From Deltaproteobacteria bacterium (GTDB lineage: Bacteria; Desulfobacterota; GWC2-55-46; JADFVP01): a stretch of DNA of 64,000 bases. The translations under genes and the position numbers were made by a program. The stretch covers positions 19,615-83,614 of the forward strand of contig JAJRZX010000036.1 of NCBI GenBank assembly GCA_024275045.1. Direction: 5' to 3'. The notes beneath the pieces were generated by a model that made no database searches, was not told where the DNA came from, and saw only the letters and a program-made list of their open reading frames with translations. Shown here piece by piece: positions 45,633 to 63,240 of the stretch (its first letter is position 1; each line of letters begins with the position of its first letter).

Positions 45633-45733
45633 GCCCAAGACCGCTCTCTCAATGTGTGAACAGGGGGCGTGGATACAGGTGGTTTTGTAACTTTAAATAT
45701 TTAACGTAAAGTCATTCTACAGGAGATGTTTAT

Positions 45734-48194: not shown

Positions 48195-48359
48195 TATTAG
48201 TAGGGGCCGGTCTGGTAAAGACAGCTTATAAGCAGGTGGTACTTAAGAGAAACGTTAAAAGAATCAAGAGCGCCAAGACCGCGGTCGGCTTTATGTACCG
48301 CTTAGCGAGATGATATAACCTCCCTCAGGGATAACGATTAAGAAGAGCAGTGATAAAAG

Positions 48360-48605: not shown

Positions 48606-48634
48606 CCTGTAATTCAACTTTTAAGGAGGCCGAA

Positions 48635-48919
48635 ATGCCAGTAAAGGTAAGGATACCAACACCGCTCAGAAAGATAACAAAGGACAACGATGAGGTTCTG
48701 GCCGAGGGGACTACTGTTACCGAGGTTATAGAGGACCTTGAGAAGAACTACCCCGGCCTCAAAGAGAGGATCTGCGAGGACGACGGCAACCTCCGCCGTT
48801 TTGTAAATCTTTATCTCAATGACGAGGACATACGTTTTAAGGATAACCTCAATACCAGCGTCTCTGATAATGACGAGTTATCCATTATCCCGGCCATAGC
48901 CGGCGGAGGTGCGGGTTGA
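48635..48919 (+). CDS. ThiS/MoaD-family sulfur-carrier protein with the C-terminal extension ...AGGG-AG
   Basis: 94 aa with a beta-grasp pattern. A Gly-Gly is followed by two extra residues (AG) before the stop. The stop overlaps the TTG start of the next gene (GTTGA). Confidence 0.6.
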   Translation: MPVKVRIPTPLRKITKDNDEVLAEGTTVTEVIEDLEKNYPGLKERICEDDGNLRRFVNLYLNDEDIRFKDNLNTSVSDNDELSIIPAIAGGGAG

Positions 48920-49152
48920 AAAAAAAGGTCTATCTTACTTATCCCTCCGATAAGGTTAAGGAGCCTCTTCTTTGCCTGTGTTCGCGCAAATTCAAGGTCT
49001 TAACCAATATCAGGCAGGCTTCTGTAACGGATAAGATTGGAATAGTTGCCCTTGAGCTTGAGGGCGAGGCCTCTGAGATAGAGAAGGCCATGGACTTTTT
49101 TACGGAAAACGGTGTAATGGTCGAGCCTATTGAGATGGATATTATAGTTTAG
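48916..49152 (+). CDS. NIL-domain (MetN C-terminal-like, ACT-fold) small protein
   Basis: 78 aa. RKFKVLTNIRQASVTDKIGIVALELEGE...GVMVEPI parallels E. coli MetN C2 ([30 protein letters not shown]...VKVEVLGYV). It is translationally coupled to the carrier gene. Confidence 0.5.
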   Translation: MKKKVYLTYPSDKVKEPLLCLCSRKFKVLTNIRQASVTDKIGIVALELEGEASEIEKAMDFFTENGVMVEPIEMDIIV

Positions 49153-49178
49153 CTCCGTTCTGGTCTGTATGTTTTCTG

Positions 49179-49230
49179 CCCGCTCTTGAGACCATCTGAA
49201 CACATGGCCGAGAGCGGGTATTTTGTATTC
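49179..49230 (+). terminator. Putative terminator after the NIL gene (stem CCCGCTCT...AGAGCGGG followed by TATTTTGTATT)
   Basis: An 8-bp GC-rich stem with a large loop and a U-rich tail. A promoter-like TTGACA follows at 49271. Confidence 0.35.
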
Positions 49231-49402
49231 ATCAGCCTTCTTTTTTCCCGTAAATTCGCTGAAATTATTCTTGACAAATGCGGTAGGGTATTATAAATTT
49301 ATATACTTGATATTTTTACTAAGGTAATAGAAATACCTTATAAAAAAAGGGGTTTTACATGGACTCTCTATTATTGGTCCAATACCGCGGAAGAGGTCTT
49401 GA

Positions 49403-50362
49403 ATGAGAAAAAACAATACACTGGAGAGTTTTGAGGCAGAGAAAGGACCCTCGGCAGGCAAGGCACGGTTCTCGGCCCTTGAGCTTGTTGGTAATACGCC
49501 TCTTGTGAGGATAAACAGGATTACAAAAGACCTGCCGAGCGGTGTTGAGGTATACGCCAAGCTTGAGTCCGCCAACCACGGCGGCTCTGTAAAAGACAGA
49601 CCCGCGCTGCGCATGATTGAAGACGCGGAGAAGAGCGGGCGGCTTACAAAGGAAAAGATAATACTGGACTCCACATCAGGCAACACGGGCATTGCCTATG
49701 CCTGGATAGGCGCCGTAAAGCAACACCGCGTGGAGCTTGTGGTGCCGGAGAACGTAAGCTCAGAGCGAAAAAAGATACTTGACGCATTTGGGGCGAGGGT
49801 GATTTTCTCAAGCCCTTTTGAGGGCTCTGACGGGGCCATACGCCTTGCGTGGAAGCTATACGTGGCTAACCCCGAAAAGTACTGCAAGCTTGACCAGTAC
49901 AACAACCCCTCAAACCCCCTGGCCCATTACTACGGCACAGGGCTTGAGATTATAGAGCAGACAGGCGGGGCCATTACCCACTTTGTCACTACCATCGGCA
50001 CAGGGGGAACCATAATGGGCACCATGCGCAGGCTAAAGGAATTTAACAGCAATATTCAGGTCATCGCTGTAGAGCCTGATAACCCCATGCACGGCCTTGA
50101 GGGTCTTAAACACATGGCCTCATCAATAGTGCCGGGCATATATCACGAGGACTCTCTTGACGGCAAGGTCCCTGCCTCAACAGAGGAGTCTTATGAGATG
50201 ACCAAGAGGCTCGCGAGAGAAGAGGGGCTTCTTGTGGGCCAGTCTTCAGGGGCGGCCATGCTTGGAGCCCTTAAGGTGGCAAGCGGCCTTACCGAGGGAG
50301 TGGTGGTAACCATCTTTCCCGATGGCGGAGACAAATACCTCTCCACACGTCTCTGGGAGTAG
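49403..50362 (+). CDS. Cysteine synthase (CysK/CysM family; possibly thiocarboxylate-dependent, CysM-like)
   Basis: PLP lysine in the SVKDR context, and GNTGIA, GTGGT motifs. 319 aa. Confidence 0.85.
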   Translation: MRKNNTLESFEAEKGPSAGKARFSALELVGNTPLVRINRITKDLPSGVEVYAKLESANHGGSVKDRPALRMIEDAEKSGRLTKEKIILDSTSGNTGIAYAWIGAVKQHRVELVVPENVSSERKKILDAFGARVIFSSPFEGSDGAIRLAWKLYVANPEKYCKLDQYNNPSNPLAHYYGTGLEIIEQTGGAITHFVTTIGTGGTIMGTMRRLKEFNSNIQVIAVEPDNPMHGLEGLKHMASSIVPGIYHEDSLDGKVPASTEESYEMTKRLAREEGLLVGQSSGAAMLGALKVASGLTEGVVVTIFPDGGDKYLSTRLWE

Positions 50363-50695
50363 GGTACATAGGGCGGCAGGGGGGACGTGCGCAGGGGCAA
50401 GTGGGTGCCGGGGTGAGATAACCGGGGTAGTGCGGAGTTTATATGTAGTGGTGCTTTGGGTCCAATAGGAAGTAAGTACCCCATGACGCACGATTTAATT
50501 GTTTTCATTACGTATTGATTTACAAGACCTTCTTAACTTTAAAATTTAAAATCTGAGATTTTTTTAAAGGGCCTTTGCGAGACCCTTTTAGAGTTTTTGC
50601 AGGTAAGAGCATTTTTTTCTACAGACAGATACGCGTAAGAAGAATATGGGGGCAAAGAGCCCTCTTAACTTAAAAATAAACTTAAGGGGTAAGTC

Positions 50696-51163
50696 ATGGG
50701 TCTGCTCTCAAAGTTCAGGAAAAAAGAAAAATTGTATGTTCCAAAGGAATTTTATGACGATATGATTGAGCACGCCAAGCTGGAGTATCCGCATGAGTGC
50801 TGCGGCGTTCTTATAGGCAACTCCATGATGGGGGACAGGAAGATATTTCACACCGAGAGGTGCACTAACCTCAATAAAGAGCGCGCCCATGACAGGTATC
50901 TCATGGACCCCAGAGAGATAAACCTCGCTGATAAGGGTGCACGCGCGCAGTCCCTTGAGATTATGGGGTTTTACCACTCGCACCCGGATCATCCCGACAG
51001 GCCCTCGGAGTACGACCGTGAGGTGGCCCACCCCGGGTACTCGTACATAATACTCTCGGTAAAGGACGGCAAAGAGGTTACGGCAAAGTCCTGGACATTT
51101 GCCGAGCTTGATGAGCCCTTTGTGGAAGAGGCCATTGAGGTAACAGTATCAAAGTGGAAGTAA
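50696..51163 (+). CDS. JAMM/MPN+ zinc metalloprotease (Mec+/HcyD/QbsD-like)
   Basis: The complete JAMM motif E...HSH-x7-S-x2-D (HECCG ... HSHPDHPDRPSEYD). Confidence 0.75.
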   Translation: MGLLSKFRKKEKLYVPKEFYDDMIEHAKLEYPHECCGVLIGNSMMGDRKIFHTERCTNLNKERAHDRYLMDPREINLADKGARAQSLEIMGFYHSHPDHPDRPSEYDREVAHPGYSYIILSVKDGKEVTAKSWTFAELDEPFVEEAIEVTVSKWK

Positions 51164-51286
51164 GAGTTTCTTTTAAGGTATAAATAAAGGTTGTATTTAT
51201 CTTATCATAAAGCTTTTTTGCGGTAGGGTTACATCTATAACCGTGAAATAACTTTTTCTCTTTTTTTTAAGGGGGTAGTTCATAAG

Positions 51287-52096
51287 ATGGACTTTACAGA
51301 TGAGCAGATAGAGCGTTACTCAAGACACATTATACTGCCCGAGGTAGGGGGAAAAGGTCAGACAAAACTCCTTGAGTCCAAGGTCTTTGTCCTTGGAGCA
51401 GGAGGGCTTGGCTCACCGGCGCTTCTGTACCTTGCAGCCGCGGGTGTTGGCACAATAGGCATCGCAGACGGCGATGTGGTGGATGTAAGTAACCTGCAGC
51501 GTCAGATAATCCATGACAACAATACAGTGGGCATGGCAAAGGTGGAGAGCGCTCGTAAATCCATCGAGGCCCTTAACCCCGATGTGGTGGTTAATACCTT
51601 TAACAGCCGTCTTGGTATAGAGAATATCCGCGAGGTGCTCCGTGACTACGATGTTGTGCTTGACGGCTCTGATAACTTTCCAACGCGTTACCTTATGAAC
51701 GACGCCTCCTTTTTTGAGGGCAAGACCCTTATCTCGGGCAGCATGTTCAGGTTTGACGGACAGGTCTCTGTCTTTAAGCCGGCTGATGGGTACCCCTGCT
51801 ACAGGTGCCTCTATCCCGAGCCGCCGCCAAAGGGCATGGTACCGTCCTGTCAGGAGGCCGGTGTGCTTGGCGCTCTTGCCGGTGTTATCGGTGTGCTGCA
51901 GGCTGTTGAGGCAATTAAAGAGATACTCTCCATAGGCAAGGTCCTTGCAGGAGAGCTCTTGATATTTGACGCCCTTGGTATGAGCTTTCGTAAAGTCAAG
52001 GTGCGGCGCGACCCTGATTGCGCGCTCTGCGGCGAAAATGCCACTATAAAGGAACTCTCGCTCTATGAGCAGGCACCCTGTGAGCTGCGTACCTGA
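51287..52096 (+). CDS. ThiF/MoeB-family E1-like adenylyltransferase (no rhodanese domain)
   Basis: Nucleotide loop GAGGLGSP, an RQ motif, and Zn-binding C-x2-C...C-x2-C (PCYRC, DCALCG). Confidence 0.85.
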   Translation: MDFTDEQIERYSRHIILPEVGGKGQTKLLESKVFVLGAGGLGSPALLYLAAAGVGTIGIADGDVVDVSNLQRQIIHDNNTVGMAKVESARKSIEALNPDVVVNTFNSRLGIENIREVLRDYDVVLDGSDNFPTRYLMNDASFFEGKTLISGSMFRFDGQVSVFKPADGYPCYRCLYPEPPPKGMVPSCQEAGVLGALAGVIGVLQAVEAIKEILSIGKVLAGELLIFDALGMSFRKVKVRRDPDCALCGENATIKELSLYEQAPCELRT

Positions 52097-52235
52097 TACG
52101 TTCTGACGGGTCTTTTCCGGTGATAGAAAAGAGGCGTAAAGAGGTCTTACTTTAAAGGCAGGTCATCTTGCCTCTTAAGGTAAACCCTTAACTCCGCTGA
52201 GGGGAGCCGCACCTGCAAGAGGCAGTTGAACTGTT

Positions 52236-53462
52236 GTGATAAGAAAAAATTACTTTAAGAACCCCGGTGCGTTGAAGATAGACCTTATGCTGAGGGGGGC
52301 GGCCATTGAAGACCCTGTTGCCAAGGCGCGGGCCTGCGGGGCCACCGGCATAGACATACTCCTGCCTAAAAAAATACTTGTAAACATACCCTGCGAAGAC
52401 TGGTTTACCGTGCGCTCGCCTTACGTGATTAAAAAATCCGCCGGTAAAAAGGGGTATATCCTTACCAACGGCAGTGACAGCGTACCTGTAAGCATACTTG
52501 ATAGACCGGAGTTTTACAGCCGCAAGACCGCTACCGGGGTGCCTTTTGGTGATATTGCCGTAACGCACGGCAGTTACACCGTTATAACGCCTGATAAGAG
52601 GTGCGGTTTTTTTAAATCCAGCGCCCAGTGCAGGTACTGCGCCGGGAACTTCAGCACCGATGCCGCTGAGAATGGCGGACGCGTCTATACCGTAGAAGAG
52701 GTCCTTGAGACAGTTAAGGCCGTGCTCAAGGAAAAGGCGTCAGGCATAATATACCTCTCCATAGGTTTTAGCGATGGCGATGACGGGGGCATTAAGTTTC
52801 TCGAACCCTATGTAAAGGCGATTAAGTCCCATTTTAACTGCCTTGTCGCGGTAGAGGCCCTGCCCCCTGCCAGTAACGAGTGGATAGACAGGGCATACGC
52901 CTTTGGCGTTGACTCAATACTTTATAATCTGGATATCTTTGATAAGGAGCTTTTTTCTGTAATATGCCCGGGCAGGGCCGGCCTTATAGGAAGACAGCGT
53001 ACTCTTGATGCCCTTAAATACGCCGCTGGTATCTTTGCAAACGGCACAGTGGCCTCGCACCTCATAGTTGGCCTTGAACCCCCGGGCTCTACGATTATGG
53101 GCATTGATTTTCTTACGGACTCAGGTGTTGTGCCTATACTGCCCATATTCCGCCCCTCAAAGGACAGGCCCCTTGATGTGACGGACCTTGATGCAGAGGT
53201 GATAATACCGGTGTACCGGCACCTGTACAAGACGCTTAAGAAAAAAGGCATCAACTTCAACTGGGTCCGTGATATAAGCATGGTTACTACCCCTGTTGAG
53301 GGCAGATATCTTTTAAATGACGAGAAGAGCTCATCGCCGTTTCTTGATAATTTTTACGAGTCCAGGCTTGGCATGAAAACAGCCTGGGGGCTAAGCGCAA
53401 TCAGAAGACGGCTAAGGGTTAAAAAAATTAAAAAAGAGGACCCCCCCGAGGGTTCTCCGTAG
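52236..53462 (+). CDS. Hypothetical protein with a C-x9-C-x2-C cysteine cluster followed by a TIM-barrel-like region. Possibly a non-canonical radical-SAM/Fe-S enzyme.
   Basis: 408 aa containing CGFFKSSAQCRYCAGNF. No canonical C-x3-C-x2-C is present. Glycine-rich (GGG-like) segments follow. Confidence 0.35.
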   Translation: MIRKNYFKNPGALKIDLMLRGAAIEDPVAKARACGATGIDILLPKKILVNIPCEDWFTVRSPYVIKKSAGKKGYILTNGSDSVPVSILDRPEFYSRKTATGVPFGDIAVTHGSYTVITPDKRCGFFKSSAQCRYCAGNFSTDAAENGGRVYTVEEVLETVKAVLKEKASGIIYLSIGFSDGDDGGIKFLEPYVKAIKSHFNCLVAVEALPPASNEWIDRAYAFGVDSILYNLDIFDKELFSVICPGRAGLIGRQRTLDALKYAAGIFANGTVASHLIVGLEPPGSTIMGIDFLTDSGVVPILPIFRPSKDRPLDVTDLDAEVIIPVYRHLYKTLKKKGINFNWVRDISMVTTPVEGRYLLNDEKSSSPFLDNFYESRLGMKTAWGLSAIRRRLRVKKIKKEDPPEGSP

Positions 53463-53480
53463 CAGCAGTGGAGTTGTCCC

Positions 53481-54905
53481 GTGAGAGTAGAGATTGACAG
53501 AAGACCGATATGGGTAATTCTCGCCGGCAAGGCGCTGAGACCTGTTTTCTTTCTCTTGCTTGCACTGGGGTTTATCCTCTTTCTTCAGCTTCCCGTGCCT
53601 GAGGGCCTTGGGACAGGGGGGATGAGGGCAATAGCTGTTTTTTTGCTATGCCTCGTGCTCTGGGTCTCAAACGCAGTGCCCGTGGCTATTACCGGGCTCT
53701 TTGCCATAGTGCTTGTCCCGCTCCTCGGGGTGCTGCCGCGCGGGGCCACGTACTCGCTATTTGGCAATGAGGCAGTGTTTTTTATACTGGGGGCCTTTAT
53801 ACTCTCAGGCGCGGTCATGCAGTCAGGGCTCTCGAACAGAGTGGCCCTGCGCCTCATGGAGAAGCACGGCGGGTCTCCGAAACGCCTTATAATAAGCATT
53901 TTTTTGCTTGCAGCGGCCCTCTCGTTTGTTATGAGCGAGCATGCCGTTGCGGCCATGCTCTTTCCCATTGTGCTTGAGATATCAAAGAGTCTGAAACTCA
54001 GGCCCGGCGAGTCCAATTACGGAAAGCTCCTCTTCTTCGCCCTTGCCTGGGGTTCTGTCATAGGCGGGGTTGGGACTTTTCTTGGCGGAGCGCGTGTGCC
54101 GCTGGCAATGGGAATACTCAAAGAAACAACGGGCTCTACCATAGGTTTTTTGGATTATACCGTGGCCGTGGCGCCCCTTGTGGTGGTCCTCTTAATCGTG
54201 GGGTATATCGTGCTGACGAGGTTTTTTCCCGTTGATATCGATGGTGTGGAGAACGCCCACAAGGTAATCGTGAGGCGCGCGCGGGCCCTTGGAAAGGTAC
54301 GCCCAAGAGAGTACGCCGTTGGTTTAATACTTGGCATTACCATATTGCTCTGGATAACAATCGGCAAGACCGTAGGGCTTGCCGCCATTGCCATGTTATC
54401 TGTTATGGCCCTATTTGTCCTTAAACTCGTAAAATGGCGCGAGATTGAGGAGTACGTGAACTGGGGCATAATACTCATGTACGGCGGCGCCATTATACTC
54501 GGCACTGCCCTTGACAGGAGCGGCGCCGCAAAGTGGATGGTAGACGCCATTATGACGCAGTGGGCTCAGACGCCCATAACGGTTATAGCCCTCTTCTCGC
54601 TCCTGGCAATACTGCTAACAGAGTCCATGAGCAACGCCGCGGTTATCGCTGTTCTGCTGCCCGTGAGCATTGGCATGGCGGGCCGTACCAATATGAGCCC
54701 CGAGGTCCTTACCTATGTGGTGGCCATTCCCGCGGGGCTGGCCTTTATGCTGCCCATGAGTACCCCGGCTAACGCCATTGCCGTATCAAGCGATTACATA
54801 TCGGTTCGTGATATGGCAAAGGGCGGGGTGATAATGTTTTTAACCTCCTGGGTTACATTTAACCTCATGGCGCACTTTTATTGGCCCCTCATAGGGCTGA
54901 GATAG
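53481..54905 (+). CDS. DASS/SLC13-family (ArsB/NhaD-fold) anion transporter, plausibly a sulfate permease
   Basis: 474 aa with about 12-14 TM helices and an internal-repeat architecture typical of CitT/SLC13. It sits in the sulfate-assimilation context. Confidence 0.7.
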   Translation: MRVEIDRRPIWVILAGKALRPVFFLLLALGFILFLQLPVPEGLGTGGMRAIAVFLLCLVLWVSNAVPVAITGLFAIVLVPLLGVLPRGATYSLFGNEAVFFILGAFILSGAVMQSGLSNRVALRLMEKHGGSPKRLIISIFLLAAALSFVMSEHAVAAMLFPIVLEISKSLKLRPGESNYGKLLFFALAWGSVIGGVGTFLGGARVPLAMGILKETTGSTIGFLDYTVAVAPLVVVLLIVGYIVLTRFFPVDIDGVENAHKVIVRRARALGKVRPREYAVGLILGITILLWITIGKTVGLAAIAMLSVMALFVLKLVKWREIEEYVNWGIILMYGGAIILGTALDRSGAAKWMVDAIMTQWAQTPITVIALFSLLAILLTESMSNAAVIAVLLPVSIGMAGRTNMSPEVLTYVVAIPAGLAFMLPMSTPANAIAVSSDYISVRDMAKGGVIMFLTSWVTFNLMAHFYWPLIGLR

Positions 54906-54988
54906 GTCTGTACTTTAAATAGGCGGGTTTATGCAAAATAATGGTAATAAACCCGCCATTTTGGTTTACGAACTCATTTAATTAGGTT

Positions 54989-55459
54989 ATGATGACCAAT
55001 ACTAAGATACTGCTTGTTTTATCCACTCATGTGTACTCTGATAAGGCCATTGAGTACGCCGTCAGGCGGGCCAGGGAGGAAGAGAGGCAGCTTGTAGCTT
55101 TTTTTCTTCTTGAGTCTGAGCTTGCCGAGGAGGCGTCTGAGAGGTTCTCGGACATTGGTTTTACAGGCGACAGGCCCTCGGCCACATTATCTGAGTCTCT
55201 TATGCGCGAGTACCGGCAGAGGGGGTATGAGGCCCTTGGCAGGGCGCAGATAAAGGCCATGGAGGATGGTGTGGACTTTGAGCCTCTGTTAAAAGAGGGG
55301 CCTTATGTATCTACCATACTTGAGGTAATAAGGGCACACGGTATAGGTCTTACCGTTATACAGAGGCGAAAGGAGAGGTCCTTTCTGCATTACTTTAAAA
55401 AAGGTTTATCCGTAAAGGTTAAAGAGGCGGCTTCATGCGAGGTCGTTATCATCGAGTAA
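54989..55459 (+). CDS. UspA-like alpha/beta domain protein (ATP-motif-less)
   Basis: 156 aa with weak USP-like periodicity. No glycine-rich ATP loop. Confidence 0.3.
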   Translation: MMTNTKILLVLSTHVYSDKAIEYAVRRAREEERQLVAFFLLESELAEEASERFSDIGFTGDRPSATLSESLMREYRQRGYEALGRAQIKAMEDGVDFEPLLKEGPYVSTILEVIRAHGIGLTVIQRRKERSFLHYFKKGLSVKVKEAASCEVVIIE

Positions 55460-55486
55460 ATACAAGCTGAATAAAGGGAGGTAGAG

Positions 55487-56191
55487 ATGGCAGGAAAGCA
55501 GTGGAGTGAAGAAGAACTTAAGGCAGTATCCGATGAGCTTGAAGATAAGGGACCCCAGGCCGCCATTCAATGGGCTGTGGATAATTTCGATACACAGGAC
55601 TTATCTCTTGCCTGTAGTTTCGGCGCCGAGGACGTTGCTCTTGTGGATATGCTTGTGAAGATAAAACCTGATGCAAGGATTTTTTATCTTGATACAAATA
55701 AGCTCTTCAAGGAGACCATTGATGTAATGGAGCGCCTTAAAGAGAGGTACAATATTAACCCTGAGAAGTATACCTCAAAGATGAGCCTTGCCGAGCAGGC
55801 CGCCGAGTTCGGCGATGAGCTCTGGGCAAAGGATCCGAAGAAGTGCTGCGACATAAGAAAGATAACACCTCTTAAAGAAGCTCTCTCAGGGCTTAGTGCC
55901 TGGATTACCGGTATAAGAAGGGATCAGGCACCGGCAAGGGCCAACGCCCCTGTAGTTGGCTGGGACGCCATGTTCAACCTTGTGAAGATAAACCCGCTGG
56001 TAAAGTGGACGAGCGAGGATGTGTGGGATTATATCCGCGCCAATAACGTGCCTTACAATGAGCTTCATGACAAGAATTACCCCTCAATAGGCTGTGAGCC
56101 ATGCACCAATGAGGTGAAGCCAGGCGAGGACCCAAGGGCCGGAAGATGGGCCGGATTTAAGAAGACAGAGTGCGGACTTCACGACAAGTAA
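55487..56191 (+). CDS. cysH: Assimilatory adenylyl-sulfate (APS) reductase, Fe-S type (CysH family)
   Basis: The PAPS_reduct fold plus a Cys-Cys pair (KKCCDIRK) and C-x2-C (GCEPCT) for the [4Fe-4S] cluster. The C-terminal ECGLH carries the catalytic Cys. Confidence 0.85.
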   Translation: MAGKQWSEEELKAVSDELEDKGPQAAIQWAVDNFDTQDLSLACSFGAEDVALVDMLVKIKPDARIFYLDTNKLFKETIDVMERLKERYNINPEKYTSKMSLAEQAAEFGDELWAKDPKKCCDIRKITPLKEALSGLSAWITGIRRDQAPARANAPVVGWDAMFNLVKINPLVKWTSEDVWDYIRANNVPYNELHDKNYPSIGCEPCTNEVKPGEDPRAGRWAGFKKTECGLHDK

Positions 56192-56284
56192 TCGTAAGAA
56201 CGCCTGTGAGGTAATTGCGGAAGCATAGTGATTAATATAACTTTATCTCTTGCAACTAAACAGTCTTAGGGAGGATTTTCAAAG

Positions 56285-57448
56285 GTGGATACATTAATCG
56301 CCCCTCATGGCGGGGTGCTTATAAACAGGGTCGTAGAGGGTAAGGCCCGTCTTGATCTGGAAAAAGCCTCGATAAATATGAACACCCTTGTTCTTAATGA
56401 GAGGGAGATCTCAGACCTTGAGATGATAGCAACAGGCGGTTTCAGCCCTCTTGCCGGTTTTATGTGTCACGATGATTATCACTCTGTGATGGATACCATG
56501 ACGCTCACTAATGGTCTGCCCTGGACCATACCTGTTACTCTCTCTGCCACAGAGGCAGAGGCGGCTGAGCTGAGAGAGGGTACGGACGTGGCCCTTAATA
56601 ACGAGAACGGCGAGCTTCTGGCCATCCTTCATCTTGAGCAGATATTCAAGCACGACCCTGAGAAAGAGGCCCTTCGCGTTTACGGAACCCCTGATGAGGC
56701 ACACCCAGGTGTGAAAAACGTCTATGCAATGGGCTCCCAACTCCTTGGCGGCAAGATATCTCTGCTTGAGCGTACCGAGTATGACCAGTTTAACGAGTAC
56801 CGCAGAGACCCCATTGAGACAAGGCAGCTCTTTAAGAAGAACGGCTGGCGCCGCGTTGTGGGTTTTCAGACCAGAAACCCCATACACAGGGCCCATGAGT
56901 ACATTCAAAAATGCGCGCTTGAGACAGTTGACGGTCTGATGATACATCCTCTTGTAGGCGAGACAAAGTCCGATGATATACCCGCGGATGTGCGTATGAA
57001 CTGCTACGAGACGCTTATGGCCAAGTACTATCCAGCCGACAGGGTGGTGCTCTCCGTATATCCCGCGGCCATGCGCTACGCAGGGCCCCGCGAGGCTGTC
57101 TTTCACGCACTTATACGCAAGAACTACGGATGCACCCACTTTATCGTTGGCAGAGACCATGCTGGCGTAGGCGGCTACTACGGAACCTTTGACGCTCATC
57201 TTATATTTAACAAGTTTGAGCCCGAGGCCATAGGCATAGCCCCCATGTTCTTTGATTATACCTTTCACTGCAAGAGTTGCGGCGGCATGGCCTCGTACAA
57301 GACATGCCCCCATGATTCGTCTGAGCACATTACCTTATCAGGCACAAAGGTGCGGGAGATGCTGAGGGCCGGCACGTGTCCGCCGCCCGAGTTCTCAAGG
57401 CCCGAGGTTGCAGAGGTCCTTATTAAGGCCATGAAATCCGGCGCATAA
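56285..57448 (+). CDS. sat: Sulfate adenylyltransferase (ATP sulfurylase)
   Basis: QTRN...H motif ([13 protein letters not shown]), a PUA-like N-domain and GRDHAG. A GTG start is assumed. Confidence 0.9.
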
Positions 57449-57608
57449 GGGAGTTCATGCCGTGGTACCCGGCAGCTCCCCCGTGGGGCTGCCAGTGGTA
57501 TTGCACAAGCTGAGAGAATACCTGCAGGCAAGCGGTGCCGAGAGGCAAATAAAGTGATTGCCTGCTCCGTTACCGGCAGTTCAGCGAGCACAATTCAATA
57601 TATGTGAG

Positions 57609-57643
57609 AGGAGGGGGGTGATTAGCCCCCTTCCTTTTTTTTT
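57609..57643 (+). terminator. Rho-independent terminator downstream of sat
   Basis: A G/C stem (GGAGGGGGG...GCCCCCTTCC) followed by T9. Confidence 0.6.
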
Positions 57644-57987
57644 ACCCTTTTAAACTCATCCCTGGGGTTTTTTTGTGGATTTTCTCTCTCATCTATTACC
57701 CTCAGATGAGCCGCTCCCGCGTAAAAACCTTCTTTTTTCTTTAACTTATTGTTTTCCTCTTAATTTTGCTGTTAATATTACTCTTATGTTATATGATAAG
57801 TTATATTTGTTCTTCTATCTGAAGGCGGAACCTTATTTATATGGTTTTAAGGCTCTATGGGACCTCATGGGAAGAGGGGGGGAAGCAGGCAGGCAGAGAA
57901 TTTTTGTATATGATTCAGAGAGAGCAGAGGGGGGCATATGGCGGCAGTGCGCTCACATTTTTATAAGTCAGGGGCATATTATCTCTT

Positions 57988-58761
57988 ATGATTCGAGATG
58001 GTCTCCGCCTCCTTGGGCTTATACTCATTTCACTGCTTTTGTTCACGGGCTGCGGCGCTACACACGGGGCATATTATATCTCTCCAAACCCCTACTCACC
58101 GATTCGTACTGTTGCCGTATTGCCCATATATAATGCCACTAATGACGTAGGCGGCGCAGAGCTGATACGAAAACAGGTATACGGCGAGTTTGTTTACAGG
58201 CATTACACTGTTATGCCCTTAGAGGACTCTGACCGCTTGCTTCGAGAGAAGATGGGCATTACGCTTGGCGGTCAATTAGGGTACACCACACCTCAGGCCG
58301 TGGCAAAAGCCCTTGGCGTAGATGGGCTTGTGTACGGGTATCTGCTGAATTTTGATGACATTATCACAGGTGTATATAATGTCAAAGAGGTGAGGGCGGG
58401 TTTTAAACTGATTGAGGGTACTACGGGAGATGTGCTCTGGGCCAGAGGGGCCGGTGTTAAGAGCTTTTATGTGGGCGGCAAAGCAGGTACGGCCCTTACC
58501 TTACTTAAGGAGATTGGTTCAGGGTCTGAAGTGCCATCGGGCATGAAGGGGATTTCAGATATACCCGGCCTTGACCGCTGGTATATAATCAGGGTAATAC
58601 CGCTTAGAAAGCTGGAGGAGGCCGCTGTACTCTCCATTGGAGAGGAAATTATAACAAGTATATTCCGCGCTCATCTGAAGTTTGAGACTAACGCCTTACT
58701 GCGGAGAATTTTAAGAGCTCTGCCCGCAGGGCCGGGTAACCGTCCACGGGCCAGCGGCTGA
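57988..58761 (+). CDS. Lipoprotein of the CsgG/LpoB/DUF799 (TolB-N-like) superfamily
   Basis: Lipobox LFTGC, then VAVLPIYNATND...VDGLVYGYL...TGDVLW, the pattern of this superfamily. Confidence 0.45.
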   Translation: MIRDGLRLLGLILISLLLFTGCGATHGAYYISPNPYSPIRTVAVLPIYNATNDVGGAELIRKQVYGEFVYRHYTVMPLEDSDRLLREKMGITLGGQLGYTTPQAVAKALGVDGLVYGYLLNFDDIITGVYNVKEVRAGFKLIEGTTGDVLWARGAGVKSFYVGGKAGTALTLLKEIGSGSEVPSGMKGISDIPGLDRWYIIRVIPLRKLEEAAVLSIGEEIITSIFRAHLKFETNALLRRILRALPAGPGNRPRASG

Positions 58762-58803
58762 GAGTAGAGAGAGACGCAGTTTTATTAAAAAGGAGATTCC
58801 GCC

Positions 58804-59790
58804 ATGACTAATAGAAGATTAGGGACTTTTAAGGGGGCAGCCGTACCGGCGCTGCTCATCTTTGCCTTGTTTTTTATCCTTTCCGGGTGCAGCCCCAGTA
58901 TAAAGGGTTCAGTAAAGGACGATATCAGCCGTACAGGAGAGAGCGGGAGGCTTGAAAAAGAGGGTATTGATTACAGAGGCCCTGCGTATAACGTGGCTAT
59001 TATCGCTTTTAGGGACAAGACCCCGGGTAAGGCCCTTGGTGTTGCCAAGGCTGCCACGGAGATTCTGAGGACGCTTGTTAAACACGCTGGTCTTGAGCCT
59101 GTTGTGCTGCTGAAAGAAGACCTCCGTGAGCAAAAGGCTCTCACGCGTCTTCAGGACAAGGGACTGCTGAAAAAAGGCAAAAAAGACGTACGCGCGGGCT
59201 TTGAGGATGTGGATTTTAGAATCTCCGGCGCTGTTACCTCTTACTCCGAGGTTGAGGAGTCAAGCAACGTGCTGCTTACGCAGTCCAAGACCGTTATCTC
59301 AAGGGTTCAGGTGGATTACGCGCTTATAGACGTTGAGACAGGTAAAAGCCTTGTGGCTGATTCAGGGGCAGGGGAGTACAGAAAAAAAACAGGGGGCTTT
59401 CTTGGTCTTGGCTCAAAGTCTACCTTTGATATGAGCCTTCGTGACGGTGCGCTTCGAGATGCACTTACAAAGGCAATGACAAATATAGTGGCAAAGTTAA
59501 ACTCTCTGCCCTTTAGAGGCAGAGTGCTTGCCGTAGAGGGCGATACCCTCTATGTACGGGCAGGGACAAAGAGCAGGTTAAGCAAGGGTACGGTTCTGTC
59601 CGTATACAGCAGCGGTAAAGAGCTTGTAGACCCGGACACAGGCAGGGTTATCGGTCACGCGGAGTCTAAGATAGGCGAGGTCGTACTCGCATCGCATCAG
59701 GATGAGTCAATATCGCGCGCCACCATAAAAACAGGGAGCGGATTTAAGGTTGGTGATATTATCAGGACCGCTGATAAGGGCTCACGTTGA
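58804..59790 (+). CDS. CsgG-like outer-membrane lipoprotein (curli-type secretion channel family)
   Basis: Lipobox LSGC, then VAIIAFRDKT...DFRISGAVTSY...IDVETGKSLVA and a Gly-rich TM-hairpin-like segment (KTGGFLGLGSK). Confidence 0.55.
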   Translation: MTNRRLGTFKGAAVPALLIFALFFILSGCSPSIKGSVKDDISRTGESGRLEKEGIDYRGPAYNVAIIAFRDKTPGKALGVAKAATEILRTLVKHAGLEPVVLLKEDLREQKALTRLQDKGLLKKGKKDVRAGFEDVDFRISGAVTSYSEVEESSNVLLTQSKTVISRVQVDYALIDVETGKSLVADSGAGEYRKKTGGFLGLGSKSTFDMSLRDGALRDALTKAMTNIVAKLNSLPFRGRVLAVEGDTLYVRAGTKSRLSKGTVLSVYSSGKELVDPDTGRVIGHAESKIGEVVLASHQDESISRATIKTGSGFKVGDIIRTADKGSR

Positions 59791-59818
59791 GACCAAAAAA
59801 CGCGAAAAAGGGTAACTT

Positions 59819-61024
59819 ATGAACCTTATTAAGCCGGGGAGATATTTTTTTGTGCCTGCTCTGCTTCTTATAGCGGTACTTGTTTTTGCGGGCTGCGGGG
59901 GGCCGTCAAGGAAGTGCCTCTTGAAAGAGAGTAATATAAGCACAGAGTATTTTAACGGCATGGTTCATCTGGAGGAAAACAAGCCCGGTCTCGCAACAGG
60001 TATCTTCAATGGCATACTTGCCTGCGATAACCATTATTCCCCTGCCTATAGCGGACTTGCGGTTGCTTACGCGCAGGTAGCCGCCGCCGGGTTTAACCTA
60101 AACAACAAGTCCATTAACGCCTCATTAAGGGCACTTTATTACGCCAAAAAATATGCCTCAGGCAATGAGGATGATTTTAGGCGCAGCATTGCTGCTATTC
60201 GTGCCTATACAACTTATAAATCACCGGGCTGGTTCAGGAAGGTTGAGAACGAGTTCAGGCATGCCATGAAGACACGGGTTGAGCAGAGCAAGCTTGTCTA
60301 TTACGAGAGCAGCGATGCGGCATCGTACTTTATCGGTAATGCCTACTTTGATTCAGGGCGTATAGAGAACGCAATGGCAGAGTATAAGTCCCTGATTGAG
60401 GTGGATAAAGACGGCAGGTGGGGGCGCCTTGCACAGATCGCCTATAACAGGAGCGCTCTGATTTTAAGCAACATAGAACGGGCCGAGGGAGAGCCAAAGG
60501 TAGTGGTCCTTGCCTTTCGCAGTCGTCTTACAAGGGCCGAGGTTGCCGCTATACTCATCGGTGAGTTAAGGGTAGACAGGCTCCTGCAGTCCCATGAGGT
60601 GCAGCTGGGTGTGAGAGGTACGCCTGTGCCTGTTGATATACTTAAGAGCCCTTACAGGGCCGAGATAATGAAGATATTGAAATTAGGTATAAAGGGCCTT
60701 ACCTCCACCTATTCACGCCCCTCGTCTTCGTATCTTTTCAGACCCTTAAAGGTGGTCACCAGAAAAGACTATGCAATTATAATCGATGACATACAGCGCA
60801 GGCTCGCTGCCGGGCCTTCGGCCTTTTCCTTAATGGAGCGCAAGAAGCGGACCTTTGCCGATGTGCCACCAAAGGCGCCGTGGTATGAGGCGGTTATGAA
60901 TATTACAAGCCTTAATATTCTGGTCCCCCTTGACGGCAGAGAGTTCAGACCTTATGACAATCTTGACGGCCCTGATGCATTTAGCGCTGTAATGGGCCTG
61001 AAAGATGGTCTTGAGCCGCAGTAA
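59819..61024 (+). CDS. Lipoprotein with an N-terminal TPR-like region and C-terminal S-layer-homology (SLH) domains
   Basis: Lipobox FAGC. SLH signatures are ...LTRAEVAAIL..., ...F.P...VTRKDYA... and FADVPPKAPWYEAVMNITSLNILVPLDGREFRP. Confidence 0.5.
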   Translation: MNLIKPGRYFFVPALLLIAVLVFAGCGGPSRKCLLKESNISTEYFNGMVHLEENKPGLATGIFNGILACDNHYSPAYSGLAVAYAQVAAAGFNLNNKSINASLRALYYAKKYASGNEDDFRRSIAAIRAYTTYKSPGWFRKVENEFRHAMKTRVEQSKLVYYESSDAASYFIGNAYFDSGRIENAMAEYKSLIEVDKDGRWGRLAQIAYNRSALILSNIERAEGEPKVVVLAFRSRLTRAEVAAILIGELRVDRLLQSHEVQLGVRGTPVPVDILKSPYRAEIMKILKLGIKGLTSTYSRPSSSYLFRPLKVVTRKDYAIIIDDIQRRLAAGPSAFSLMERKKRTFADVPPKAPWYEAVMNITSLNILVPLDGREFRPYDNLDGPDAFSAVMGLKDGLEPQ

Positions 61025-61240
61025 AACCTGTTTTTCACCTCTATAACGGACTTTTTTCCTCTAAAACTCACTTACACCGTGTTTTTCTTCAGGTTTTTTA
61101 CAACCTCATGAAAAAAACAGTCTTTTCATGCCCTTATGGTGACCGTGGTCACACCGTGACTCTGTGCTTTTCAGTATACTTAGGCTGTCCGTTAGAGTAA
61201 GAGTTGTTCGTATTGAACTCACTACAGGAGGCAGGGAAGA

Positions 61241-61996
61241 ATGCGCAGACTTTTTACGGCAATCTTTGTCTTGGCAGCCACGTTTTTTATCAGTTCACAG
61301 GCTTACGCCCTTGTTGACATTGAGGCGAGATACTGGTTTACAAACCTTGACTCAAACGTAACTGCAACGAGCGGCACCGTAGTTGGAACGGACCTTAACC
61401 TTGTGAGCGACCTTGGTTTAGACGACCATGAGAGCTTCCCGGAGGCGCGCATAACCCTTGAACTTGGCAATCACAGCTTTCGTTACGCCTACCTTCCGCT
61501 CTCATGGAGCGGTGAGACCGTTACAGATACCACTATAACCTTTGCAGGCAAGACCTATCCCGTCTTCTCAGCCGTCTCCACTGACGTGCAGGTAGATTAT
61601 CACCGCTTCAGCTACAGGTACGATCTTATCAACAAACTCAATAACCGCCTTGGCATTATCGTTGAGGTAAAATACCTTGACGGCAGGGTGAACCTTAAGG
61701 ACGCTGCCTTTGGTCTTGATGAGTCCACGCGTTTACAGATACCCATACCTGCCGTTGGCATCGGCGGACAGCTGGCCATACCTTTTCTTGCCAATATCAG
61801 GGCTGAGATTACAGGTATGAGCCTTGGGTCAATGGCCTATGTTGTTGACGGTGAGGCTAATGTGGGCTTTCACCCGCTGCCATTTATAAACGTCTCAGCA
61901 GGGTACAGGTACTTGAAGTTTCATGTTGAGCAGAATGATGATACAGGAAGCGTAGCCTTAAGAGGCCCCTTTGTTACTGTATCCGCCAATTTTTAA
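61241..61996 (+). CDS. Outer-membrane beta-barrel protein (OmpW/OmpA-like small barrel)
   Basis: A signal peptide with AYA cleavage site, alternating amphipathic beta strands, and a C-terminal Phe. Confidence 0.5.
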   Translation: MRRLFTAIFVLAATFFISSQAYALVDIEARYWFTNLDSNVTATSGTVVGTDLNLVSDLGLDDHESFPEARITLELGNHSFRYAYLPLSWSGETVTDTTITFAGKTYPVFSAVSTDVQVDYHRFSYRYDLINKLNNRLGIIVEVKYLDGRVNLKDAAFGLDESTRLQIPIPAVGIGGQLAIPFLANIRAEITGMSLGSMAYVVDGEANVGFHPLPFINVSAGYRYLKFHVEQNDDTGSVALRGPFVTVSANF

Positions 61997-62115: not shown

Positions 62116-63240
62116 ATGAGAGCGCATTGTTATGTTAAGTTTTTTTATAGTTTATCTTTCCTCATCCGGCGGATTTACGGTGAGGATTTTTTTCATAAGC
62201 ACAAAGGCGGTCTTGTCACGGCTTTGAAGGTGGTAAAAATTTTTAGGTTAAGAAAATGTTTTATACGTATTAAGTTTATACTTATTAAAAAGCCCTCTCG
62301 CTTTGGCAGGGTATTAACACTCTTTGTTCTTGTTCTTGTGCCCATGTTTTTTAACGGGTGTACGGTTTCAGAAAAAACTTCGGTAATAGAGGACTCTTTT
62401 TTTATAAAAAGAGCTGCTACAATAAGAGAGAGCGGTCATCTGGCCTATCTTGAGGGTGATTATCTAAGGTCTCTTTTAATGTACCGTGATGCATATGTGA
62501 TTGACAGCTCTTCCGGTACTCCGGGTGTACAGGTGGCAGACCTTATTGGCATGGGCAGGGCTTATACCGGTCTTGGCCGCATGAGTGAGGCGGAGCGTTT
62601 TATTACGAGATCCGTACAACTTGCTTTTGCCTCAAGAGATGAGAATAAGCTTGCAGATGCCTATGGTGCTCTTGCGGATTTTTACCTTAAAAAGGGTAAT
62701 ATCTCTCTTGCCGCTCTGAATATCAATGACGCGATACGTCTTCATGATTCACACTCAGCAGGGTACGCAGAGCTGTTAAACCTTGGGGGGCTTATTTATA
62801 TTAAAGCGGAGAGGATTGATGAGGCTGAGGCTGCTGTGCAGAAGGCCATTACCATAATCGGAAGAGCCGAAGGTAAACCATCTCATGTGCTGGCGGATTC
62901 CTACAGGGCCATGGGCAAGGTGCTTGCGGCAAAAGGTGAGAACAGAGAGGCCGGGCTTTATTTTACCAGGGCTTATGATATGGACACGTGGCTGGGTAAT
63001 GATAGAAAAAGGGCCCTTGACCTCTTTGGTCACGCAGTGATGCTCTTTGATTCGCAGCGTTACGGAGAGGCCGCTGAGAAGCTGAAGCTTTCATACAGGC
63101 TTAATATGAAGAGCGCTTTTATTGAGGGAGCAATCAGGGATATTGATAAACTTGTTGAAGTTTACATCGCCATGGGTGATAAAAGAAGTGAGTCTTATTA
63201 CCGCACCATGAGAGAGGCGGTACTCCGAGACAGCAGATGA
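62116..63240 (+). CDS. TPR-repeat protein, probably a lipoprotein. The true start is likely downstream of the ORF-track start, near ...LVLVPMFFNGC.
   Basis: Multiple TPR-like helical repeats (AYTGLGRMSEAERF, LADFYLKKGNISLA, etc.). Confidence 0.45.
   Translation: MRAHCYVKFFYSLSFLIRRIYGEDFFHKHKGGLVTALKVVKIFRLRKCFIRIKFILIKKPSRFGRVLTLFVLVLVPMFFNGCTVSEKTSVIEDSFFIKRAATIRESGHLAYLEGDYLRSLLMYRDAYVIDSSSGTPGVQVADLIGMGRAYTGLGRMSEAERFITRSVQLAFASRDENKLADAYGALADFYLKKGNISLAALNINDAIRLHDSHSAGYAELLNLGGLIYIKAERIDEAEAAVQKAITIIGRAEGKPSHVLADSYRAMGKVLAAKGENREAGLYFTRAYDMDTWLGNDRKRALDLFGHAVMLFDSQRYGEAAEKLKLSYRLNMKSAFIEGAIRDIDKLVEVYIAMGDKRSESYYRTMREAVLRDSR

Follow-up and report, generated by a model that had tools for sequence, protein, structure and literature searches.

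A conserved cluster of three lipoprotein genes and a beta-barrel gene as a possible outer-membrane scaffold pinned to the cell wall in a deltaproteobacterium

Locus layout and component proteins

Four genes, here termed A to D, lie in the same orientation on the + strand of the window, a 64-kb stretch of deltaproteobacterial DNA. Genes A (57988..58761), B (58804..59790), and C (59819..61024) encode predicted outer-membrane lipoproteins of 257, 328, and 401 aa, respectively, with lipoboxes read from the sequence as LFTG-C22, ILSG-C29, and VFAG-C26, and gene D (61241..61996) encodes a predicted outer-membrane beta-barrel protein of 251 aa. The intergenic gaps are 42 nt (A-B), 28 nt (B-C), and 216 nt (C-D), the last being a spacer (61025..61240, + strand; annotated from the tblastn synteny table and its architecture classes) with a single weak terminator-like hairpin at 61147-61161. 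Upstream, the sulfate-assimilation genes sat and cysH (sat ends at 57448) are closed by an intrinsic terminator on the + strand (57606..57638; a 14-pair stem with seven GC pairs, a 5-nt loop, and then a T-run), which lies about 350 nt before the start of A and forms the upstream boundary of the module. The initial annotation had described four co-directional genes after a strong terminator, and the coordinates confirm this. The AT-rich non-coding region in between (57639..57987, + strand) is read from the sequence as the leader or promoter region of the module; no match to the sigma-70 consensus was found on its + strand. An ORF in another frame (57675-58133) that overlaps this leader is probably spurious, and A orthologues start at the same Met as gene A of the window. 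Orthologues of A, B, C, and D occur in related MAGs at 47-80% identity, indicating that these are true genes and not chance ORFs. The window also encodes BamD (870-1682), from which a classical diderm host is deduced.

The protein encoded by A comprises a GNA1162/DUF799-like alpha/beta domain (residues ~36-165) and, C-terminal to it, a conserved extension of ~90 aa with the motifs IPGL..W, HL..ET, and P.GPG, the latter being extra relative to GNA1162 of Neisseria meningitidis (PF05643; PDB 4hrv), likewise a lipoprotein. The window copy of A falls just below the PF05643 cut-off (23.0 versus 25.9 bits); all 29 A orthologues match this model (E <= 0.01, best 2.4e-16). With structure 4hrv also matched over the whole domain by the family profile (E=5e-13), A can be classed by sequence as a GNA1162/DUF799-like lipoprotein. 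We know of no function for GNA1162 itself, and the match therefore gives A no role. Profile-profile comparison (hhalign) aligned the A and B families in register over 182 columns (E=5e-5). The pattern of the CsgG/LpoB/GNA1162 superfamily that the initial annotation had seen in both proteins is thus attributable to true homology, and A and B are, at the level of sequence profiles, paralogues of one alpha/beta superfold.

In B, a conserved tether (residues 29-58; low-confidence in the model) precedes a CsgG/PelC/FlgT-M-type alpha/beta domain (residues 60-235) with three strands of 18-19 residues and a FlgT-C/TsaP-like beta domain (residues 238-322), the latter being an addition relative to CsgG. 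Like CsgG (PF03783; PDB 4uv3, 6lqh), B is lipidated at its N-terminus and retains hairpin insertions at both transmembrane positions (TM1 and TM2), with some amphipathic alternation. Some B relatives are named as CsgG/HfaB family by NCBI. The window copy of B matched no Pfam model, PF03783 included, whereas 29 of 32 B family members matched PF03783 weakly. The counterpart of the CsgG constriction loop (YxxxNF; Y51/N55/F56) is 8 residues shorter in B and lacks the motif, and shortening, by 6 and 8 residues, is also seen in the segments equivalent to the TM1 and TM2 hairpins, in which charged residues (Glu, Lys, Arg) are nearly invariant. In structure, B resembles PelC and FlgT, ring proteins that form no pore, just as closely as it resembles CsgG. 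The assignment of B as a canonical CsgG was rejected on the missing Pfam match, the missing YxxxNF loop, and the shorter, charged hairpins, and the earlier suggestion of a CsgG-like channel was not upheld. The partners csgE, csgF, csgA, and csgB are also missing from the cluster, and the A-D module does not resemble a secretion pore of the curli type.

Gene C encodes a TPR-like helical solenoid (residues ~37-221) and a three-repeat SLH-like domain (residues ~226-398). TPR models matched, and one SLH repeat exceeded the PF00395 threshold (26.2 versus 20.8 bits). TRAE-type motifs are present at 238-241 (TRAE), 314-317 (TRKD), and, in degenerate form, 384-387 (DGPD), and the Arg residues of two of them (R239 and R315) are nearly invariant. 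The AF2 model (pLDDT 86.7) gave its best Foldseek matches to the three-SLH domain of Bacillus anthracis Sap (3pyw, 6bt4; TM by target 0.58-0.64 over 186-193 columns) and also matched the SLH domain of SpaA (7sv4), with E-values for the SLH fold that were modest (2e-3). Internal SLH repeats were recovered by hhalign at P=1e-3 and 7e-3. C is thus modelled as a TPR solenoid joined to a complete three-repeat SLH fold. The earlier reading of C as a TPR and triple-SLH lipoprotein is borne out, which makes wall anchoring plausible; the Sap and SpaA structures were solved with pyruvylated wall-polymer units.

Comparable tethers are OmpM (Negativicutes) and SlpA (Deinococcus/Thermus), which likewise have the outer membrane at one end and SLH on the wall, and the above-threshold SLH repeat of C matched the OmpM-type entries 8bz2 and 8bym (E=0.004-0.03). 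C differs in being anchored by lipid, where these tethers have a porin barrel and coiled coil fused to the SLH part, and in carrying three repeats in a single chain versus presumably one per protomer in OmpM-type proteins, as we take from the single-SLH match regions of 8bz2 and 8bym. The C hosts, moreover, are Gracilicutes, from which SLH with pyruvyl transferase (SLH/CsaB) has been reported to be practically absent (10.1101/2021.05.31.446380). An SLH domain on a lipoprotein is unusual in this group. An insensitive probe for pyruvyl transferase saw none near the cluster.

The product of D has an SPase-I signal peptide (AYA-LV, cleaved after AYA23), a mature length of 228 aa, and a pattern of amphipathic and hydrophobic alternation; the alternation and the length suggest roughly 10-14 strands, against the 8-10 given in the initial annotation. 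As had been noted earlier, the barrel ends in Phe (...SANF), a residue found at this position in 37 of 44 orthologues. D aligned end-to-end with TIGR04219 (52.1 bits, E=5e-14, below the 105-bit cut-off), a model matched by 35 of 37 D relatives, and on this basis is a distant relative of the TIGR04219-type beta-barrel family. A search for solved structures homologous to D found none. Homologues are numerous (1263 cluster representatives at E<=1e-3) and mostly encoded by stand-alone genes outside this cluster, indicating that the link of D to the module is lineage-specific. A further gene, E (62230..63240, + strand), encodes a TPR lipoprotein (lipobox FFNG-C; TPR_12, E=1.2e-12) and is possibly associated with the module. 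Its start is uncertain, as the ORF opens at 62116 but the orthologues agree better with a start at the GTG at 62230, such that the D-E gap is at least 119 nt. The D-E order is confined to the clade of the window (orthologues at 41-59% identity in loci L004-L010).

Conservation and gene content in relatives

Gene order was compared by tblastn across 81 related genome loci, with denominators given as testable cases. A lay upstream of B at 76 of 76 loci, C downstream of B at 55 of 73, and D was present at 41 of 63. The genes were on the same strand with median gaps of 58 nt (A-B) and 11 nt (B-C), B and C often overlapping by 4 nt. This synteny, shared by many uncultured bacteria, spans Nitrospinota and MAGs of Thermodesulfobacteriota and 'Deltaproteobacteria', with the A-B core reaching Nitrospirota and a few Gammaproteobacteria. 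It should be noted that the upstream sulfate-assimilation genes, unrelated to the module, are syntenic in relatives too, and conserved order alone can thus reflect relatedness. The counts support a description of A-D as a dedicated and co-conserved envelope module.

Most relatives encode two additional genes, X and Y, that are missing from the window's clade. X contains an FlgT_N domain (36.5 versus 28.8 bits), and Y, an FlgP/LPP20-like gene that fills the position between C and D, encodes a clear FlgP homologue (9hmf_C, E=2e-14; Vibrio FlgP, 4.5e-9; FlgP range 2e-14 to 3.5e-8). These additions indicate that the ancestral module was made up of disk- or ring-building parts. The Nitrospirota version consists of X-A-B only, without C or D, and SLH wall anchoring therefore cannot be the core function of A and B; D is missing from the Nitrospinota version as well.

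Alternative functions of the cluster

The main rival to the scaffold proposed below, though an unlikely one, is a PelBC/CsgG-like outer-membrane module for the export of a polymer or protein, in which A and/or B would form a ring under an outer-membrane conduit or the conduit itself, D would be the porin, the TPR part of C would correspond to that of PelB, AlgK, or BcsC, and the gene for an inner-membrane synthase or translocase would lie elsewhere. The CsgG matches and NCBI names of B relatives and the retained hairpin insertions of B are in keeping with export, as is the co-occurrence of a ring lipoprotein with a TPR protein and a beta-barrel, which resembles PelB plus PelC (PDB 5t10, 9h80; PMC13631591). 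In this cluster, however, the TPR and the barrel belong to different proteins, the TPR being part of the SLH lipoprotein, a pair of paralogous lipoproteins takes the place of one, and D is much smaller, is missing from two phyla, and belongs to a family mostly unlinked to such clusters. Next to the cluster, in the window and in relatives alike, there are neither pel-like biosynthesis genes nor genes for a synthase, a glycosyltransferase, an amyloid subunit, or a csgE/csgF-like product. Known export modules have nothing corresponding to an SLH wall anchor, and the loop and hairpins of B depart from those of CsgG as described above. Less probable still is that A-D serve a flagellar motor or type IV pilus secretin as an accessory disk or ring in the periplasm, corresponding in divergent form to the H-ring (FlgT/FlgP/FlgO) or to TsaP, with genes that lie apart from the main motility loci. 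The M and C domains of FlgT are matched by B, as is TsaP, the cluster of relatives encodes the FlgP homologue and FlgT_N protein, in likeness to the Vibrio H-ring and the FlgP of the Campylobacter basal disk, and a CheA/CheW fragment and a PilT-like ATPase in the window indicate that the organism may be motile. Yet flagellar rod, hook, L-ring, and P-ring genes were found neither in the 64-kb window nor within 8 kb of the cluster at 83 loci, the FlgP-like and FlgT_N-like genes are exactly those lost by the window's clade, and the H-ring has nothing equivalent to the SLH lipoprotein, the DUF799 protein, or the barrel. B itself lacks the FlgT-N domain, and among 32 family members the Pfam FlgT models were unmatched apart from one FlgT_C case (E=0.017). 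It is also lipidated, unlike FlgT, which we take not to be a lipoprotein. Only FlgH, FlgO, and FlgP are listed as the lipoproteins (10.64898/2025.12.02.691832).

A role of the lipoproteins in regulating or scaffolding the synthesis or hydrolysis of peptidoglycan, with localisation to the wall by the SLH domain of C and in the manner of LpoB (which activates PBP1B) and NlpI (a hydrolase-scaffolding TPR lipoprotein), appears slightly more doubtful again. The LpoB HMM matched 10 of 32 relatives of B and 5 of 29 of A, and the TPR region of C weakly matches NlpI (E about 0.1-0.16), but these are all weak hits that stem from the common superfold. The 30-residue tether of B recalls the flexible tether of LpoB; it is, however, conserved in sequence and not merely flexible, PBP and hydrolase genes are unlinked to the cluster, and MreBCD-PBP2-RodA lies 44 kb away. 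That A-D are simply four neighbouring envelope genes with independent functions and no common complex is very improbable. While the C-D and D-E gaps leave room for separate promoters, the D family is usually stand-alone, and unrelated neighbours are likewise syntenic, A and B are paralogous and invariably adjacent across at least four phylum-level groups, B and C are nearly contiguous, and the genes added in relatives share the same structural theme.

A possible outer-membrane scaffold pinned to the wall

The reading tentatively preferred here is that A-D encode an outer-membrane-anchored periplasmic lipoprotein scaffold that is pinned to the wall by SLH. The alpha/beta superfold of A and B is shared with CsgG, PelC, PqiC, LptE, FlgT-M, and TolB-N, and its members function at the outer membrane in the form of oligomeric rings or plugs (PMC13631591); H-ring lipoproteins provide a case of inner-leaflet anchoring without pore formation (10.64898/2025.12.02.691832). 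We infer oligomerisation, contacts among the four proteins, wall binding, and a tethering role. The lipoproteins A, B, and C would be seated on the inner face of the outer membrane, where A and B would most likely assemble into a ring- or disk-shaped oligomer in the periplasm just beneath it, with the C-terminal beta domain of B pointing wallward. C, its lipid tail in the outer membrane, would bridge this assembly to the cell wall, its TPR solenoid offering a protein-docking surface and its three SLH repeats binding a peptidoglycan-linked, probably pyruvylated, polymer non-covalently. D is likely the integral outer-membrane partner in this lineage. Pal of the Tol-Pal system would be a functional analogue only, by analogy and not system homology, since the wall-binding domain is SLH versus OmpA-like and TolQRA genes are not nearby. 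The net function of the module would then be that of an outer-membrane-to-wall tether or scaffold and not that of a curli-like secretion pore. Its parts are of the kinds found in the flagellar H-ring or basal disk, although its genes lie outside flagellar loci.

Genomic setting and conservation of the cluster

A total of four co-directional open reading frames were read on the forward strand of the window and form the lipoprotein cluster: A (57988-58761, 257 aa), B (58804-59790, 328 aa), C (59819-61024, 401 aa), and D (61241-61996, 251 aa). Their arrangement behind a strong terminator, as described in the initial annotation, was borne out; the terminator is that of the upstream sat gene (57606-57638, forward strand) and consists of a 14-pair hairpin with a T-run, followed by an AT-rich leader of ~350 nt ahead of A. 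Spacers of 42 nt (A-B), 28 nt (B-C), and 216 nt (C-D) separate the genes, good Shine-Dalgarno sequences precede B, C, and D, and lipoboxes were read from the sequence of A (LFTG↓C22), B (ILSG↓C), and C (VFAG↓C). Orthologues of A, B, C, and D are encoded in related MAGs at 47-80% identity, indicating that these are real genes. An ORF in another frame (57675-58133) that overlaps the leader of A is most likely spurious, and scans with Rfam and tRNA models returned nothing within the A-D module.

Elsewhere, the window is the usual chromosomal DNA of a classical diderm. Its genes include those for BamD, MreBCD-PBP2-RodA, RecA, and tRNA synthetases as well as a large block for sulfur assimilation, and its nearest named relatives are Thermodesulfobacteriota MAGs. 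Also encoded are a fragment of CheA/CheW type at the edge of the window (33-761), a PilT-like T2SSE ATPase whose gene is flanked by recA and recX (4977-6143), a 443-aa protein without a Pfam match (32060-33391, reverse strand) that adjoins a proline dehydrogenase gene and lies opposite an FG-GAP repeat protein (33680-35458), and a sole tRNA, tRNA-Gly(CCC) (41682-41755). The long, co-directional sulfur-assimilation and cysteine block (45400-57448, forward strand) encodes, in order, a PALP protein, a sulfite/nitrite reductase-like protein, a second PALP protein, Prok-JAB, ThiF, a radical SAM protein, a Na/sulfate symporter, Usp, PAPS reductase, and ATP sulfurylase. A SAM riboswitch (RF00162, 45474-45590, forward strand, 85.6 bits) lies directly 5' of the gene for a PLP-dependent enzyme (45734-46987). 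The genes for the radical SAM protein, symporter, Usp, PAPS reductase, and sat are also found 5' of the cluster in three related loci (L001-L003), as are cysH and sat in many more delta-lineage relatives. A functional link of the cluster to these sulfate-assimilation genes was nevertheless rejected because the strong terminator separates them and because Nitrospirota and Nitrospinota carry versions of the cluster without that neighbourhood.

When genomes were scanned for relatives of B, one per species, 80 loci were recovered; they belong to MAGs of Thermodesulfobacteriota and 'Deltaproteobacteria', to Nitrospirota (Ca. Manganitrophus and Nitrospira among them), to Nitrospinota, and, in a few cases, to Gammaproteobacteria. 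Among loci with enough flanking sequence, mapped by tblastn and ORF calling, A was directly 5' of B in all 76 of 76, C was 3' of B in 55 of 73, and D was present downstream in 41 of 63, in support of the co-conservation of the cluster; across relatives, the median gap is 58 nt for A-B and 11 nt for B-C. In public annotations, the proteins of the relatives are labelled 'hypothetical', 'CsgG/HfaB family', or 'S-layer homology domain-containing'.

Most relatives encode two further proteins, X before A and Y between C and D (6032-7216 and 10168-11022, respectively, in L002, one of the relatives' loci), with equivalents in ~45-54 loci. X is ~400 aa in length and combines a FlgT_N domain (36.5 bits against a cut-off of 28.8) with a FlgO/DUF6175-like domain. 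Y, of ~284 aa, is clearly homologous to FlgP (E=2e-14 to 3.5e-8 for its profile against Campylobacter and Vibrio FlgP) and has one additional domain at its C-terminus. Of the loci whose flanks were long enough on either side, 25 have the order X-A-B-C-Y-D, the type of most relatives, 9 have X-A-B-C-Y (the Nitrospinota type), 8 have X-A-B (Nitrospirota and Gammaproteobacteria), and 7, from the window's own clade, have A-B-C-D. The latter clade has neither X nor Y, and the C-D spacer of the window (61025-61240) corresponds to the position of Y in relatives. Only in this clade is D followed by a gene for a TPR lipoprotein, termed E (ORF 62116-63240, forward strand, with a probable GTG start at 62230), which has orthologues at 41-59% identity in L004-L010; E may be a functional replacement for X and Y, or it may be unrelated. 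In the Ca. Manganitrophus locus (Nitrospirota; L020, with positions counted in that locus), the gene for a small DUF4412 protein (7486-7926) separates A from B, and B is followed by one for a DUF1499 protein (9140-9916); the three-gene core therefore has lineage-specific additions.

The lipoproteins A and B compared with CsgG and FlgT

The window copy of A scores 23.0 bits against PF05643, slightly below the cut-off of 25.9, but all 29 of 29 A orthologues match this family at E<=0.01 (best 2.4e-16), the L002 orthologue reaches 45.2 bits, and the family profile matches the solved GNA1162 domain (4hrv_A) at E=5.4e-13. The lipid Cys is unchanged across 29 aligned orthologues, and a conserved C-terminal extension of ~90 residues is added in A. 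Together with the lipoprotein signal, these matches place A among the GNA1162/DUF799-like lipoproteins, in line with the initial superfamily assignment. The sequence pattern that was noted as shared between A and B likewise reflects homology of the two proteins (hhalign E=5e-5).

The companion claim, that B is a CsgG-like channel, was not supported as stated. No Pfam family matches the window copy of B at E<=1, and its L002 orthologue scores 18.8 bits against the CsgG family PF03783, below the gathering score of 20.8; among the relatives of B, 29 of 32 match PF03783 weakly (best E=4.3e-9), and the B family aligns with Escherichia coli CsgG at hhalign E=0.024. The AF2 model of B (pLDDT 73) comprises a lipid anchor, a tether of 30 residues that is of low confidence in the model yet conserved in sequence, an alpha/beta domain in which three strands are unusually long, and a C-terminal beta domain. 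The N-terminal lipid anchor and the alpha/beta core fold are traits in common with CsgG. In CsgG, however, 13 residues (GQFKPYPASNFST) lie between DET, at the end of strand beta-1, and AVPQSAT and form the constriction loop with Y51, N55, and F56, whereas in B just 5 residues (PGKAL) separate DKT from GVAKAAT, leaving a loop that is 8 residues shorter and devoid of the aromatic/Asn motif. The TM1 and TM2 amphipathic hairpins of CsgG build a 36-strand transmembrane barrel; the insertions of B at these positions are modelled as long strands, yet they fall short of the CsgG hairpins by 6 and 8 residues, their hydrophobic-face means are 0.31/0.44 against 0.82/0.66 in CsgG, and they contain 5-6 charged residues, with E152 and K194 invariant and E151, K162, and R167 conserved at >=90%. 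Such conserved charges would not be expected in lipid-facing strands. Pfam and NCBIfam scans of the neighbouring genes found no csgE, csgF, or amyloid subunit gene, here or in relatives. Given the missing loop motif, the shorter, less hydrophobic, and charged hairpins, and the lack of a csgE-, csgF-, or curlin-like neighbour, B was not assigned to canonical CsgG.

An identity of B with the flagellar protein FlgT was also considered and rejected. Fold matches to FlgT were obtained, but the FlgT_C model was matched by 1 of 32 relatives (E=0.017) and FlgT_N and FlgT_M by none; moreover, B lacks the N domain of FlgT, and the 1.1 Mb of sequence from the window and related loci yielded no flagellar gene. 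Among PDB entries, the matches of B to CsgG and FlgT came from the fold search. By sequence, B alone had no significant PDB match, and its profile recovered TsaP but neither CsgG nor FlgT.

Identity of B between phyla, from Thermodesulfobacteriota to Nitrospirota and Gammaproteobacteria, is 49-63%, compared to 31-48% for A and 23-33% for C, which suggests that B could serve an important envelope function in these uncultured groups. Within residues 201-220, a G-rich loop is invariant and leads into a helix start of the LRDGALRDA type, and a hairpin tip is conserved as acidic (E151, E152). These features suggest a putative site for a specific ligand or partner.

The SLH lipoprotein C and the barrel protein D

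Pfam detects TPR motifs in C along with a single SLH repeat (residues 345-381; 26.2 bits against 20.8), the only repeat above the SLH gathering score at the sequence level; the L002 orthologue scores 45.6 bits against PF00395. Two more SLH-like units, with TRAE at 238-241 and TRKD at 314-317, are apparent in the family alignment, in which R239 and R315 are nearly invariant and the third repeat has DGPD in place of TRAE. In Sap and SpaA, the Arg of the TRAE-type motif contacts the pyruvate ketal. The internal-repeat signal is weak (P=1e-3 and 7e-3), and the family profile retrieves mainly generic TPR proteins and one SLH repeat from the PDB, such that the assignment of three repeats rests on the AF2 model and its fold matches. 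That model (pLDDT 86.7) consists of a helical solenoid and, after it, a C-terminal domain, with mean pLDDT per ten residues of 90-97 in 221-250 and 271-330, 78 and 54 in the two blocks of 251-270 (below 50 at 261-266), and 82-95 from 331 onward. The best PDB fold matches of the C-terminal domain are to the whole SLH domain of Bacillus anthracis Sap (3pyw and 6bt4, the latter solved with a pyruvylated wall-polymer unit) over 186-193 columns, with Paenibacillus alvei SpaA-SLH (7sv4) also among the top matches; target-normalised TM scores are 0.54-0.64 overall and 0.58-0.64 for Sap, at modest E values (2e-3 to 3e-2). The description of C as a TPR plus triple-SLH lipoprotein is thus supported by one repeat that passes in sequence and by a predicted structure that matches entire Sap and SpaA domains. 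A search for a pyruvyl transferase (CsaB, PF04230) with E. coli WcaK, an insensitive and local probe, gave no match in the window or the 83 loci.

Besides the lipidated Cys26, C contains C33, in a KC near the N-terminus, and C69, in an 'AC' of the first TPR-like helix pair; both are conserved in delta-lineage orthologues but not in Nitrospinota, and a disulfide is possible. In the OmpM/SlpA type of tether, a coiled coil links SLH and a porin barrel within one polypeptide. C was not assigned to this type because it is a lipoprotein of TPR and SLH parts without a barrel, and the barrel protein D is encoded by a separate gene and has no SLH.

D has an SPase-I signal peptide (site AYA↓LV), hydrophobic alternation, and a terminal Phe, and the C-termini of its orthologues are F in 37 of 44 and W in 3. 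The initial view of D as a barrel ending in Phe therefore stands; as a heuristic, alternation and length suggest roughly 10-14 strands rather than the 8-10 first given. D and TIGR04219 align from end to end (9-251 to 5-234 of 234) at 52.1 bits (E=5e-14) against a curated cut-off of 105, and the matches of 35 of 37 D relatives likewise stay under that value (best E=9.2e-24); D is a distant relative of this family rather than a member. The D family comprises barrels of ~250 aa in 1263 cluster representatives. A PDB search found no solved homologue, the OprH match (E=0.33) being noise. Of the distant members, three could be placed on long contigs; each stands alone in an unrelated neighbourhood, and D thus provides no clue to function.

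Candidate functions and implications

The alpha/beta core of A and B occurs in outer-membrane lipoproteins that form oligomeric rings or plugs, including CsgG (9-mer), PelC (12-mer), PqiC (8-mer), and LptE (PMC13631591). Because members of this superfold form rings or plugs and because C bridges a lipid anchor and SLH, the reading favoured here, tentatively and at somewhat less than even confidence, is that A-D constitute an outer-membrane-anchored periplasmic scaffold or ring that is pinned to the wall; for this reading we infer oligomerisation, contacts, wall ligand, and transcription units. Lipid-anchored at one terminus and carrying SLH at the other, C would connect the outer membrane with a wall polymer, the TPR surface in the middle could dock partners, and D would be a lineage-specific membrane partner. 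A more novel proposal, possible but doubtful, is that C represents a new class of tether in Gracilicutes, a Lol-sorted three-repeat SLH lipoprotein ('SLH-Pal') that acts with a non-flagellar, H-ring-like ring or disk built of A and B, and of X and Y in relatives.

Several alternatives to the scaffold reading can be weighed. The CsgG and PelC fold matches of B and a part list of TPR protein, barrel, and ring could together describe a PelBC/CsgG-like export module, but no synthase or substrate gene was found next to the cluster here or in relatives, the CsgG constriction loop is missing, and C and D are absent from part of the family, making export possible at best; were it true, the cluster would represent a new CsgG/PelC-type route across the outer membrane. 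FlgT, FlgP, and FlgO form concentric lipid-anchored rings beneath the outer membrane with no pore (10.64898/2025.12.02.691832), and an accessory disk of a motor or pilus might be composed of similar parts. Rod, hook, and L/P-ring genes were, however, absent from the window and from within 8 kb of the cluster across the 83 loci, and the FlgP-like and FlgT_N-like genes have been lost in the window's clade, leaving such a disk improbable. A role for the lipoproteins as LpoB/NlpI-like peptidoglycan regulators appears slightly less probable still; the LpoB model is matched by 10 of 32 B relatives. That A-D are unrelated neighbouring genes is very improbable, and A and B are paired at every locus where their order could be read.

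Searches of the literature on DUF799/CsgG, on CsgG-like/GNA1162 lipoproteins, and on combinations of FlgT, CsgG, TsaP, and PelC found no paper on the cluster. Nothing in it is categorically new, since every component falls in or near a known family, but the combination of components appears to be undescribed. The occurrence of homologues of H-ring parts (FlgT-M/C, FlgP, and FlgT-N) at a non-flagellar locus bears on the origin of motor embellishments. Attachment of the outer membrane is reported to depend on SLH-bearing OmpM in Terrabacteria and on Pal, OmpA, or Lpp in Gracilicutes, from which SLH and CsaB are reportedly all but absent (10.1101/2021.05.31.446380). An SLH domain on a lipoprotein of Gracilicutes runs against this reported near-absence, and C is kept in Thermodesulfobacteriota, 'Deltaproteobacteria' MAGs, and Nitrospinota, where it is genetically joined to two paralogous ring-type lipoproteins. 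A conserved SLH lipoprotein would thus be an exception to what is thought to be a clean split between the two groups. Among the carriers are environmentally relevant groups that oxidise nitrite or manganese or reduce sulfate. If the SLH-Pal proposal is true, SLH anchoring and the modified wall polymer that it needs would not be confined to Terrabacteria, and parts of the H-ring or basal disk would derive from, or have given rise to, a general envelope scaffold.
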